DNA of 64,000 bases from Mailhella sp. (GCA_017408905.1 JAFQTU010000016.1:520-64519); one strand, 5' to 3'; counted from the first letter of the stretch, positions 9,960-45,380 are shown. Notes: a model not told the origin generated them from the letters alone. Translations and numbers: made by a program.

Positions 9960-11678
9960 CTAGCTGAAGAAGTAGAGCTGACCGAGCGCCACGCTCCTGG
10001 CCGGGGGAACAGTGGCGTGCACACCGTCCACGGTAACGGCAAAGGTCTCGGGATCGACCTCCACCTTGGGCAGGAAGGCGTTACGCACCATGCAGTGCTT
10101 GGAAAGCGTGCGCATACCGCGCACGGCTTCCACACGGCTCCGAAGGCCCAGCTTCTCGCCAACGCCCAGTTCCTTGGCCGCCTGCGACACGAAGATGATG
10201 CGCCCGGTCTGCCGCCTGAGGCCGATGCCGCCGAACATGGGGCGGTAGATGACCGGCTGGGGCGTAGGCAGGGAGGCGTTGGGGTCGCCCATGACGGACC
10301 ATGCTATCATGCCGCCCTTAAGCACCATCTGGGGTTTGGCTCCGAAGAAGCGCGGATCCCAGAGCACGAGGTCGGCCACCTTGCCCTTCTCCACCGAACC
10401 GATGAGATGGGACACGCCCTGAATAATGGCCGGGTTGATGGTCACCTTGGCCACGTAGCGGAGCACGCGGAAATTGTCGTGCCTATCGCAGTCTTCCGGC
10501 AGAGGGCCGCGAGCCGCCTTCATGGCGCTGGCCGTCTGCACGGCGCGGAGCCAGTTCTCGCCCACGCGGCCCATAGCCTGCGAATCGCTGGAGAAGCAGG
10601 AGATAGCGCCCATGTCGTGCAGGACGTTCTCGGCGGCAATGGTCTCGGCCCTCACGCGGCTCTCGGCAAAGGAGACGTCCGAAGGGACATTGTGGTTCAG
10701 GTTATGGCAGACCATGATCATGTCGAAGAGCTCGGCCTGCGAATTGACGCCGAAGGGCAGGGTCGGGTTGGTGGAGCTGGGCAGGACGTTGGGGTAGGAA
10801 ACAGCCTTGATGATATCCGGGGCATGGCCGCCGCCCGCGCCTTCGGTGTGATAGGTGTGGATGACGCGGCCTTCCATAGCGGCGATGGTGTCTTCCACGT
10901 AGCCCGCTTCGTTCAGGGTATCGGTATGAATGGAGACCTGCACGTCCATCTCGTCGGCCACGGCAAGGGCATGGCGTATCATGGAAGGCATGGCGCCCCA
11001 GTCTTCATGGATCTTGAAGCCGCAGGCCCCGGCCTCTATCTGCTCGCGCAGGGGCAGGGGGGCGCTGGCATGGCCCTTGGCCAGAAGGCCCACGTTCACG
11101 GGCATGGCTTCCACGGCTTCGAGCATACGGTGTATGTTCCATTCCCCGGGGGTGATGGTCGTGCCGTTCGTGCCGTCCGTAGGGCCTACGCCGCCGCCGA
11201 AGAACGTGGTCACGCCGTTGGAAATGGCGGCCTCGCCCTGCTGGGGGGAAATGAAGTGGACGTGCGAATCGATGCCGCCGGCCGTAAGGATGAGGTGCTC
11301 GCCGGAAATGGCGTCCGTGGCGTTGCCCACTACGAGTTCCGGGCTCACGCCGTCCATGACGGCAGGATTGCCCGCCTTGCCTATGCCCGCTATCATGCCG
11401 TCGCGTATGCCCACGTCGGCCTTGATGACGCCCTGCACGGCGTCCACGATGGTCACGTTGGTGATGACGATATCCAGCACGCCGCTGTCGCGCCCGGTGC
11501 GGGAATCGCCGCCCATACCGGCGCGAAGGGTCTTGCCGCCGCCGTAGATGGACTCGTCGCCGTAGCCGCGCAGGTCCTTTTCGATTTCCACGTAAAGGTC
11601 GGTGTCGCCAAGGCGGATGCGGTCCCCCACGGTGGGGCCGAACAGCGAAGAGTATTCTTTTCTTGAGATCTGCGCCAT
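9960..11678 (-). CDS. ureC: Urease subunit alpha
   Basis: Nickel ligands are intact: [40 protein letters not shown]; flap MVCHNL. Confidence 0.99.
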
Positions 11679-36779: not shown

Positions 36780-38063
36780 ATGGCTCAACAGATAGATACG
36801 ACTATTATGACGGTGGGCAAGGCGAAGATCGACAACCCCGCCATCGGCCCTTACGTGACCGACAGTCCTGTTCCCTTCTACCTTGATGTGGAACACGCCG
36901 GAGAAGACGCCAAGGGGCTCGACGCTCCGCTCTTCCTTGAACAGGCCGGCCCCCGCTCCCATGTTTACTACGACCCCGGCAAGACCAAGGCTGCCGTCGT
37001 CACCTGCGGCGGCCTCTGCCCCGGCCTGAACGACGTTATCCGCGCCATCGTGCTCGAATCCTACTACGGCTACGGCGTGCGTTCCATCCTTGGCATCCGC
37101 TACGGCCTTGAGGGCTTCATCCCCAAGTACCACCACGATGTCATGGAGCTCACGCCCCGCAACGTCTCCGAGATCCATTCCTTCGGCGGCACCATCCTCG
37201 GCTCTTCCCGCGGCCCGCAGAGCTCGGAAGAGATCGTGGACGCCCTTGAGCGCATGAACGTCAACATGCTCTACATCATCGGCGGCGACGGTACTATGAA
37301 GGCCGCTTCCGCCATTCAGGAAGAGATCGCCCGCCGCCGCCTGCACATCGCCGTGGTCGGCATCCCCAAGACTATCGACAACGATATCAACTTCGTGCCC
37401 AAGTCCTTCGGCTTCGATACCGCTGTGGACGTGGCCACCAACGCCCTGCGCTGTGCCCATACCGAAGCTATCGGCGCCCCCTACGGCGTGGGCCTCGTCA
37501 AGCTCATGGGCCGCGAATCCGGCTTCATCGCCGCTTCGTCCACGCTCTCCCTGAACGTGGTCAACTTCGTGCTCGTGCCTGAAGCCCCCTTTAAGCTGGA
37601 AGGGGAAGGCGGCCTGCTCCCCGCCCTGGAAAAGCGCCTGCTCGAACGCTCCCACGCCGTTATCGTGGCGGCCGAAGGCGCCGGACAGGACCTGCTCACC
37701 GCTTCCGGCAAGACCGACGCTTCCGGCAACCTCGTCCTCGGCGATATCGGCTCCTTCCTCCAGAAGGCCATCAAGAACTATTTCGCGGCGAAGGACATGA
37801 ACGTCACGGTCAAGTACATCGACCCCTCCTACATCGTGCGCTCCATGCCCGCCAACACGAACGACCGCGTTTACTGCGGCCAGCTCGGCCGCAACGCCGT
37901 GCACGCCGCCATGGCCGGCAAGACCAACATGGTCGTGGCCCGTATGCAGGACCGCTTCGTGCACCTGCCCCTGCAGCTCGTGACGCGCCGCCGCCGCAAG
38001 ATCGACATCACGTCCAACTACTGGCGCTCCGTCATTGCGACGACCGGCCAGAAGCTGGCCTAA
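36780..38063 (+). CDS. pfkA: ATP-dependent 6-phosphofructokinase
   Basis: GGLCPGLNDVI, GTILGSSRG, IGGDGT, PKTIDND, MGRESGFIA. Confidence 0.93.
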   Translation: MAQQIDTTIMTVGKAKIDNPAIGPYVTDSPVPFYLDVEHAGEDAKGLDAPLFLEQAGPRSHVYYDPGKTKAAVVTCGGLCPGLNDVIRAIVLESYYGYGVRSILGIRYGLEGFIPKYHHDVMELTPRNVSEIHSFGGTILGSSRGPQSSEEIVDALERMNVNMLYIIGGDGTMKAASAIQEEIARRRLHIAVVGIPKTIDNDINFVPKSFGFDTAVDVATNALRCAHTEAIGAPYGVGLVKLMGRESGFIAASSTLSLNVVNFVLVPEAPFKLEGEGGLLPALEKRLLERSHAVIVAAEGAGQDLLTASGKTDASGNLVLGDIGSFLQKAIKNYFAAKDMNVTVKYIDPSYIVRSMPANTNDRVYCGQLGRNAVHAAMAGKTNMVVARMQDRFVHLPLQLVTRRRRKIDITSNYWRSVIATTGQKLA

Positions 38064-44558: not shown

Positions 44559-44562
44559 CACT

Positions 44563-44600
44563 GAAGACCGCCTGCCGGATATCCAGCGGGCGGTCTTTCT
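44563..44600 (+). terminator. Intrinsic terminator after addB
   Basis: GAAGACCGCCTGCCGG-ATAT-CCAGCGGGCGGTCTTTCT. Confidence 0.75.
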
Positions 44601-45322
44601 GTATGCGCGTGCAGTGCAGGAGTGAGGAGTTCGCAGCATTCGCAGTTCGGCATGGCGGAATCTGCCGTCGTCTCCGCCGTACCTTGGCCAGAACACGCCC
44701 TTCGCGTCATGAAGAAGGGCATGGCAGGACAGAAATGGGGGCCGGACGTCATGGCGCATCCGGCTGAGGAGTTCTCCGAAAGTTCGGAGCGGGGGAAATT
44801 TTGCCAGCATGCATGGCGGGCATACTGGCAATGCGGAGGAGTTCTTCCGAAAGGGGACCTGAATCCTTCGGAAGCCTATGGCGAAAATATCATGGATCTG
44901 CAGTCCATCTCCTTCCGCATGGGCAGAGAAATTTTGCCGGACATCCAGACAAATGCCCGGCGGAAGCGCTTCCTCGGAACAAAGCGCTTGGTGGAATCAG
45001 CGGAACGCTCGGATCATCCCGCTGCTGTTATGGCGAACAAGCGAAGACTTGGTGCTTTCGGGCCGCCCTCCACTATGGAGGGCGGCCCTCGCCGCACCAG
45101 GAGACTGAGGCATGGCCTCAGCACGGAACACGGAACGCCCGTGTTCCAATACCTGCGAGAGCTGGGCTCTCGCGAAATTTTGCCGCCTGACGTCCTCCGA
45201 AGGTCGGAGTCAAGCCGTCGTCAGACGGCGGAGGGGGGAGGTCATATGTTGCCCTGGGCCTTTGCGAACACTCTGCGATTGTCAAATGAGCGGCTTCTGC
45301 GTTGGAGCTTCCCGCTCTCGTT
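44601..45322 (-). ncRNA. Candidate large structured non-coding RNA of unknown family
   Basis: About 14 hairpins, repeated motifs, G-U wobble asymmetry favouring the minus strand, and an upstream promoter-like sequence (see findings). Boundaries are approximate. Confidence 0.55.
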
Positions 45323-45328
45323 GATTTA

Positions 45329-45380
45329 GTAGTAATGAATTCTATTTTCAAAGTCAACACTTTTTTTCCTTCTCTCTAAA
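45329..45380 (-). promoter_or_regulatory. Putative sigma70 promoter firing into the hairpin-rich region
   Basis: Minus strand A-tracts, then GTG-TTGACT (45357-45352)-N17-TACTAC. The -35 and UP-like tract are good; the -10 is only a partial match. Confidence 0.45.

Follow-up and report, generated by a model that had tools for sequence, protein, structure and literature searches.

A large structured RNA behind a predicted Fur box in Mailhella, with conserved linkers that may act as anti-Shine-Dalgarno seeds

The gap of 980 nt between addB (stop codon 44558, +) and pyrG (start 45540, +) in a Mailhella genome carries repeats on its minus strand that are complementary to translation-initiation signals. 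What is transcribed from this gap, and what do the repeats do? Mailhella is a gut sulfate-reducer and a member of the Desulfovibrionaceae. The genome analysed here (GCA_017408905.1) has 1.96 Mb, is 97.8% complete and has 61% G+C. The window is the whole stretch of 64,000 nt (JAFQTU010000016.1:520-64519), and positions are counted from its first letter. The product of addB is a PD-(D/E)XK nuclease, and the product of pyrG is CTP synthase. A sequence-only reading of the window had proposed that a candidate RNA in this gap pairs through CUCCU with Shine-Dalgarno (SD) sequences and through GCCAU with AUG-GC start codons in many mRNAs at once. It had further proposed that the plus strand, if transcribed by read-through from addB, offers GAGGAG and AUG decoys.

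Comparison of homologous sequences indicates that the motifs belong to a genuine RNA transcribed from the minus strand. In an alignment of 19 species, 192 base pairs were arranged in 26 helices, with 91% of the cells paired. Pairs changed on both sides numbered 83, against 43±4 in shuffles and 30-41 when the partners were slid by 1-3 columns. At the helix positions, G-U was counted 330 times and A-C 69 times, and this imbalance indicates that the folded transcript is the minus strand. A coding reading of the locus was rejected, since the indels are not multiples of three and the helices covary.

The RNA is ~760 nt long in this genome and has a conserved core of ~660 nt elsewhere (range about 650-760 nt). 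It is a chain of covarying hairpin modules with conserved pyrimidine linkers between them, and the linkers are of the types (A/U)CUCCU(C/G), CCUCC and CCUCCCCCC. Sub-motifs recur beside the covarying hairpins (CAGUCUCCU, CUCCUGGU and CCUCCCCCC twice each, GGCAAAAUUUC three to four times). The motif GGCAAAAUUUC, which the earlier reading had not used, is conserved after a covarying GCCG..CGGC hairpin in each module. An internal duplication of the two halves of the RNA was considered and rejected, as their local alignment scored 41, not significantly above the null of 34±6. The GC-rich palindrome beyond the 3' end of the RNA is likely a two-way terminator with no clear U tract; the terminator scan gave no call at this palindrome. 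The coordinates of all features are collected in Table 1.

The distribution of the RNA was determined with BLAST and a covariance model of its 5' domain. It is present in 24 of 34 Mailhella genomes, with one copy each, and in 15 of the 19 high-quality ones; the same search found it absent from 147 genomes of 71 other Desulfovibrionaceae genera. Similarly, a 19-mer scan of genome contigs gave real homology solely in Mailhella-type records. The matches in Nocardioides and other records were due to chance, and a single 21.7-bit match in a scan of viral contigs, seeded by a 17-mer, was also judged to be chance. At the gathering score, no Rfam 15 family matched the RNA region or six homologous loci, and the matches at E <=10 were of chance level only. 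An RNA of this kind was not found described in the literature on Mailhella or Desulfovibrio. As a separate observation, 11228-11528 (+), within a urease cluster, matches the 5' ureB sRNA of Rfam (65.9 bits), and conservation of the ureB coding sequence may explain this match.

Table 1 Features of the RNA locus and of the separate flavodoxin promoter of genome G005. Positions are those of the window unless another locus is named.
Feature	Position	Strand	Remarks
-35 element TTGACT	45352..45357	-	TTGACA/T in 22/22 homologs
17-nt promoter spacer, matching the delta-proteobacterial Fur box, TTGAAAATAGAATTCAT	45335..45351	-	3 mismatches to WTGAAAATNATTTTCAW
-10 element TACTAC	45329..45334	-	TAnnnT in homologs
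Conserved TCAAC	45324-45320	-	likely transcription start (predicted)
Structured non-coding RNA	44562..45322	-	~760 nt in this genome; both ends predicted
5' C-rich linker GACCUCCCCCCUCC	45230..45243	-	all homologs; unpaired probability 0.71; contains ACCUCC as in the 16S 3' tail
GGCAAAAUUUC module motif	45175..45185, 44929-44939, 44796-44806	-	3 copies against 0.00 expected
CAGUCUCCUGGUGCGGCGAGG, holding CUCCU	45087..45107	-	21-nt stretch, identical in nearly all homologs
UUCGCCAUAACAGC, conserved CCAU site 1	45024..45037	-	GCCAU 10/21, CCCAU 11/21; unpaired probability 0.66
UUCGCCAUA, conserved CCAU site 2	44877..44885	-	GCCAU 18/20; kept in L064 and L065
GAACUCCUCCGC, motif copy 1	44833..44844	-	core CUCCUCCGC conserved; directly 3' of the (A/U)CAGGU-loop hairpin; kept in L064 and L065
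GAACUCCUC, copy 2	44766..44774	-	CAGUCUCCUCCCCCCCC in major clade; CUCCUC(CCC) 15/21; unpaired probability 0.81
GAACUCCUC, copy 3	44624..44632	-	not conserved, this genome only
GC-rich 17+17 palindrome	44564..44597	.	between RNA 3' end and addB stop codon (44558)
fld promoter of G005, TTGACA-TTGAAAGTCACTTTCAC-TATTTT	L111:2030-2059 (contig C74)	-	fld leader ~85 nt

The promoter gives the first indication of when the RNA would be made. All 22 homologs share one layout of TTGACA, a 17-nt spacer, TAnnnT and then TCAAC, and the promoter type is sigma-70 in every homolog. The Fur box of delta-proteobacteria has been described as the 17-bp palindrome WTGAAAATNATTTTCAW (Rodionov et al. 2004, PMC545781). 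In Desulfovibrio, such boxes are often doubled with a 6-bp shift and overlap TTGAC, and the predicted Fur regulon includes feoAB and the flavodoxin gene fld (PMC545781). A Fur box with 1-4 mismatches to WTGAAAATNATTTTCAW was found in the RNA promoter in 22/22 homologs, and the box of this genome has 3. The feoA-feoB promoter of the same genome has the identical layout, TTGACT-TTGAAATCCATTTTCAT-TATCTA. A scan of the genome with WTGAAAATNATTTTCAW gave 25 matches at <=3 mismatches, against 9 in the reversed-genome control, and 7 at <=2 mismatches, against 0. At 3 mismatches, which is the level of the RNA's own box here, about half of the genome matches may be chance; the Fur-box case rests on the orthologous boxes and the shared promoter layout. 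Two FUR-family genes are present in this genome. On sequence evidence, the promoter thus carries a Fur operator as in Fur-repressed iron-sparing riboregulators.

Several further Fur-box sites were recorded during the scan. In L006, L008, L009, L011 and L012, an extra box with 1-2 mismatches lies further upstream of the promoter box. The feoA-feoB promoter is located on contig C64 at ~37356-37480 (L101:57-182), with a second box-like site ~70 nt downstream. Its leader carries AUCCUCCCCCCUUCCCACCUCCUGCC, which resembles the 5' linker of the RNA, and CCTCCCCCC occurs only 19 times in the genome. Other strong sites are found at C48:4277, C19:5567-5613, C80:19987 and C12:1554, and the genes behind them are candidate members of the Mailhella Fur regulon. 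One of them, a perfect 17-mer, precedes the gene of a 637-aa protein whose YhdP-like Pfam match is weak and below threshold. An OsmC-like gene has tandem boxes in front of it, and other sites precede the genes of a 648-aa protein that belongs to no Pfam family and of a C_GCAxxG_C_C redox protein. A third locus with a Fur box followed by CCUCCCCCC (contig C34, between rpmB and a divergent gene) was set aside as probably chance.

The repeats that had drawn attention to the locus are all real, and none of 500 dinucleotide shuffles reached their counts. The minus strand of 45322..44601 holds three copies of GAACUCCUC (44844, 44774, 44632), five of CUCCU (shuffle mean 0.97), seven of GCCAU (45116, 45034, 44882, 44817, 44755, 44725, 44656; shuffle mean 1.2) and five of CGCCAU (shuffle mean 0.4). 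The complements AGGAG and AUGGC are not enriched on this strand. As traits of the family, the CUCC(U)/CCUCC linkers and two CCAU sites stood, whereas exact GAACUCCUC and most copies of GCCAU did not; in the homolog comparison, the exact 9-mer GAACUCCUC was found solely in this genome. The conserved cores are CUCCUC at 44841 (22/22 sequences), CUCCUC(CCC) at 44771 (15/21) and two that are missing from the earlier list, CUCCUGG at 45103 (22/22) and ACCUCCCC at 45243 (all sequences). As whole linkers, UUGACCUCCCCCC at 45243, CAGUCUCCUGGUGCGGCGAGG at 45107 and (N)UCUCCUCCGCAUUGCC at 44841 are kept in nearly all homologs. The major clade has CAGUCUCCUCCCCCCCC where this genome has GAACUCCUC at 44774, and it also has a conserved linker, GUACUCCUGGUCGUGC, near the 3' end of the RNA. 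The same linker set is retained by the most divergent variants (L064, L065).

The CUCC-type linkers are mostly predicted to be single-stranded. Over the homolog alignment, each RNA has a mean of 9.9 CUCC, 7.2 of them in unpaired columns, where 43% of the residues are unpaired overall. CCUCC occurs about four times per RNA and is nearly always unpaired by prediction, and GGAG occurs 3.5 times, of which 0.3 are unpaired. Almost no unpaired GGAG is therefore available inside the RNA to pair with the CUCC linkers. The predicted unpaired probability, as the mean of 19 homologs, is 0.37 overall, 0.71 for ACCUCCCCCC at 45243 and 0.81 for CUCCUC at 44771. The earlier statement that the repeats are single-stranded thus holds for most CUCC linkers (0.7-0.8 unpaired) but not for CUCCUCCGC at 44841, with a 19-homolog mean of 0.45 and 0.00 in this genome's own fold, nor for the helix-embedded GCCAU copies at 44725 (0.29) and 44656 (0.04). 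An alternative pairing of GCGGCAGGAG with CUCCUCCGC was rejected on the evidence of L014, in which covariation supports the local hairpin. By prediction, the RNA has conserved single-stranded C-rich regions complementary to the SD, as do the sRNAs with C-rich seeds.

The ribosomal RNA of the genus supplies the reference for this complementarity. The 16S rRNA 3' end of the genus reads GGAUCACCUCCUUUUA, with the anti-SD CACCUCCUUU; the 16S 3' end was not found in the assembly of this genome. GGAG lies within 22 nt upstream of the start in 44.5% of 1,280 predicted genes of this genome (a crude gene set). The 16S tail and this frequency of GGAG indicate that CUCCU and CCUCC are true anti-SD sequences. 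The preference of the RNA for initiation regions was found to be slight. The 5' C-rich linker S1 reached <= -12 kcal/mol with 476 initiation regions, against 276 gene-interior windows, and a reversed control segment did as well (423 at <= -12 kcal/mol). For the other C/U-rich segments, the difference between initiation regions and interiors was even smaller. Complementarity between the RNA and mRNAs is only of SD level, at most 5-7 nt, and no complement of >=13 nt to any invariant segment of the RNA was found elsewhere in the genome. The longest contiguous matches (a PfkB kinase, an unknown protein, a YchJ-like protein, RnfA/E, a PLP enzyme and a symporter) have no iron theme. A regex search for ferredoxins gave few small ferredoxin-like ORFs, and duplex energies of the whole RNA were meaningless. 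GGAG-UUC spacers, considered as a signal, were not over-represented. At 61% G+C, C-rich seeds discriminate poorly, G-rich sites being common; the converse point was made by the authors of the IsrR study for AT-rich genomes (PMC9410917). Hfq (PF17209), ProQ (PF04352) and CsrA gave no match in this genome, which is 97.8% complete, and the usual sponge or chaperone models accordingly do not apply.

Of the anti-SD pairing proposed earlier, the conserved unpaired CUCC, the match to the 16S anti-SD and the promoter class stood. The preference for initiation regions was only slight and was confined to S1. The Fur-box promoter places the RNA beside known regulators with C-rich anti-SD seeds (IsrR, FsrA; PMC9410917). 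The reading that we put forward, tentatively and with somewhat less than even confidence, is that of a Fur-controlled iron-starvation RNA in which the unpaired CUCC-type linkers act as anti-SD seeds on mRNAs. With plentiful iron, Fur would repress the RNA, and under iron starvation the RNA would accumulate. Several unpaired C/U-rich linkers would then pair with GGAG-type SD regions and lower translation of the mRNAs. The outcome would be an iron-sparing response as in IsrR or FsrA, working without Hfq and on a much larger scaffold with multiple seeds, as in RNAIII.

The same conserved linkers could serve the fold itself. Counting against the anti-SD reading are invariant stretches of 15-21 nt within an elaborate fold of 26 helices. 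In such folds, long invariant stretches are more characteristic of cores that make tertiary contacts or bind a ligand or protein than of plain pairing seeds. It is a serious possibility, though one we would not call probable, that the CUCC, CCAU and GGCAAAAUUUC repeats are junction or linker elements for tertiary contacts or for repeated docking of a small ligand or a protein, so that the RNA would be a sensor, scaffold or sponge. The resemblance to SD and AUG complements would then be incidental, and the RNA may still be controlled by iron. The invariant blocks reach far beyond the CUCCU core, the sub-motifs recur like modules beside the covarying hairpins among the 26 helices, and no specific mRNA target emerged. 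In most species, the conserved fold continues to the fld ribosome-binding site, as it would in a sensing leader. Energy models also offer invariant long-range partners for CUCCUGG, GGUGCGG and UCGCC. However, the proposed long-range helices, including those predicted for CAGUCUCCUGGUGCGGCGAGG at 45087..45107, never vary; being invariant on both sides, those for the three motifs are neither supported nor rejected by covariation. One proposed partner, GGCGA, is altered with no compensation in three species. A docking partner is also lacking among the candidates searched: the global RNA-binding proteins Hfq, CsrA and ProQ gave no match, none of the neighbouring protein genes accompanies the RNA consistently in both genomic contexts, and the poly-C tracts have no unpaired G-rich partner. 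Because of the long invariant blocks, the modular sub-motifs and the proposed invariant partners, it is nearly as likely that the linkers serve the tertiary structure or bind a protein or ligand as that they pair in trans.

The genomic context bears on whether the RNA acts in cis. The RNA lies beside addB in this genome and in seven other species, with pyrG on the other side in four. In at least 15 species, the order on one strand is an alaX-like gene, the Fur-box promoter, the RNA and fld. In the RNA-fld species, the 82-166 nt preceding fld showed neither a second Fur box nor a sigma-70-like promoter, and the conserved structure extends up to the fld ribosome-binding site in most species. At major-clade loci (e.g. 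L007, L042), the last ~40 nt before the fld start contain UUCUCC, which is able to pair with the GGAGAA ribosome-binding site of fld. This pairing points to a local translational switch in the fused leader, as predicted from sequence. In this genome, no fld ortholog was found (best match 38% identity over 62 aa), and the same query found none in four other genomes with a stand-alone RNA. In G005, the RNA and fld lie at separate loci, each with its own Fur-box promoter. G005 thus has the RNA and fld as two distinct members of one predicted regulon; in most species, these predicted members are fused.

It is improbable that the element is simply a long cis-acting 5' leader of the flavodoxin mRNA, which would persist in this genome as a leftover with no function in trans and whose motifs would act in cis, for example as anti-SD strands. 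In most species, the promoter, the RNA and fld follow one another on one strand and no other promoter intervenes; this arrangement, the UUCUCC of the distal leader and the missing fld ortholog in this genome would all fit such a leader. Against this, at least eight species on separate branches keep the RNA with no fld downstream of it (L001-3, L017, L018, L020, L064, L065), and in these lineages the structure and the promoter are preserved and the helices covary. Moreover, the fld of G005 has its own Fur-box promoter and a ~85-nt leader elsewhere, so that the RNA is not needed in cis. As judged from these loci, the RNA is maintained also where cis action on fld is impossible.

The start-codon part of the earlier proposal concerns GCCAU. 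Homologs carry 0-7 copies (mean 2.8), and the maximum is in this genome. GCCAU is conserved at two sites only, 45034 (as G/CCCAU) and 44882 (18/20), and the copy in the loop at 44817 is partly conserved (13/22). The mean predicted unpaired probabilities over 19 homologs are 0.68 for UUCGCCAUA at 44885, 0.66 for SCCAUAAC at 45034 and 0.89 for the GCCAU(G) loop at 44817. Immediately 3' of UUCGCCAUA comes a covarying hairpin, the loop of which, (A/U)CAGGU, is conserved. AUG-GC starts make up 9% of the genes, with the same share among strong-SD genes, and GCN is the second codon in 11.9%, no different from its frequency inside genes (12.1%). GAGGAG and AUGGC are combined in 3 of 1,280 initiation regions, and AUGGCGAA is found in two. 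Segments bearing GCCAU pair slightly worse with initiation regions than with gene interiors. The 12-nt match GCUGUUAUGGCG around an AUG-GCG upstream of the PfkB kinase gene was rejected, as five orthologs lack it and have their conserved start at a more downstream position. For the two conserved CCAU sites, a part in junctions or tertiary structure is more likely than the reading of start codons.

The full model of the earlier reading, in which CUCCU/AGGAG and GCCAU/AUG-GC pairing clamps many initiation regions, confers control by start context and is accompanied by plus-strand decoys, is very improbable: although the motif counts are far above chance, GCCAU lies 5' of CUCCU in four places here, in the order expected for an antisense to SD...AUG, and the conserved UUCGCCAUA-hairpin-(N)UCUCCUCCGC is complementary to an idealised GGAGGAG...AUGGCGAA initiation region, the richness in GCCAU is peculiar to this genome, AUG-GC is neither enriched nor tied to strong SDs, GCCAU segments have no preference for initiation regions, the best start-codon match is unconserved, selection acts on the minus strand, and most loci do not lie downstream of addB. 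On the plus strand, the GC-rich palindrome that follows the addB stop codon also bears on read-through from addB. The start-codon and decoy parts of that model should be dropped.

The Fur box and the flavodoxin linkage, neither of which was part of the sequence-only reading, give this orphan RNA a concrete condition, namely iron starvation. To our knowledge, no iron-sparing riboregulator is known from sulfate-reducing Desulfovibrionaceae, and none was found described in the literature. These sulfate-reducers inhabit the gut, where iron is contested, and are rich in iron-sulfur and heme proteins. If the iron-starvation reading with anti-SD seeds is true, the solution of Fur plus C-rich seeds would have arisen independently once more, on a scaffold 4-8 times the size of IsrR, FsrA or RyhB, and an iron-sparing RNA would be physically joined to flavodoxin, the classic iron-sparing gene. 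Should the pairing idea not hold, an RNA of ~26 helices that is genus-wide and stands behind a Fur box would still be a rare new large bacterial RNA. A bolder version, which we regard as a long shot, is a Fur-controlled multivalent anti-SD hub of 0.7 kb. Its 5-7 copies resembling the 16S tail, presented by a rigid modular scaffold, would bind several mRNAs simultaneously or compete globally with the 30S subunit for SD sites, and it would reprogram translation at low iron while delivering the fld message in cis in most species. Such a hub, if true, would represent a new architecture of iron-sparing control and a new class of large RNA.

Several known systems share parts of this design. FsrA of Bacillus subtilis and RyhB and PrrF of gamma-proteobacteria are riboregulators under Fur repression, and they reduce the synthesis of iron-using proteins. 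In FsrA, a C-rich motif is directed against the SD, as proposed for the Mailhella RNA. In contrast, FsrA, RyhB and PrrF are ~80-150 nt long, depend on the chaperones FbpABC or Hfq, which were not found in the Mailhella genome, and are unrelated in sequence. Iron-sparing riboregulators as a class are small (~80-200 nt) and end in an intrinsic terminator, whereas the Mailhella RNA is far larger and is continuous with fld in most species. RNAIII of Staphylococcus aureus has 514 nt and many hairpins, and its unpaired C-rich motifs pair with the SDs of several mRNAs. Its seeds are in hairpin loops, whereas those of the Mailhella RNA are mostly in linkers between hairpins; RNAIII is also the message for delta-hemolysin, and quorum sensing rather than Fur drives it. 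CsrB/RsmZ and CrcZ are protein-sponge RNAs, and OLE, GOLLD and ROOL are large orphan RNAs. The Mailhella RNA resembles them in its repeated short motif on a structured RNA, its large size and its narrow taxonomic range, but its motif is CUCC and not GGA or A-rich, CsrA and Hfq were not found, and it has no Rfam match. Sponges of the CsrB/RsmZ type present GGA in loops beside a CsrA gene, and here GGAG is almost always paired. Similarly, Hfq- or ProQ-dependent sRNAs go with a chaperone gene, and neither gene was found in this genome.

The predicted Desulfovibrio Fur regulon shares with the Mailhella loci the 17-bp box, its overlap with TTGACA and the membership of flavodoxin (PMC545781). In D. 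vulgaris, ~180 nt separate the box from fld and a large RNA has not been described there, whereas in Mailhella a conserved folded RNA of ~0.8 kb lies between the two or stands alone. IsrR of Staphylococcus is a Fur-repressed iron-sparing sRNA of 174 nt with three hairpins and a terminator (PMC9410917). Like IsrR, the Mailhella RNA has one or more promoter Fur boxes and several conserved, predicted-unpaired C-rich regions against the SD, would work without Hfq and is confined to one genus. Unlike IsrR, it is ~650-760 nt long with ~26 helices here, has no relation to IsrR in sequence or synteny, and is set in a host of 61% G+C, in which C-rich seeds are less selective. The targets and the iron response of IsrR are proven, whereas the Mailhella RNA is known from its sequence alone. 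Because of its size, and because no extended or conserved target emerged, the RNA is not filed as a member of the IsrR/FsrA class. By analogy, its working principle would be closest to that of IsrR and FsrA, and its size is closest to that of RNAIII.
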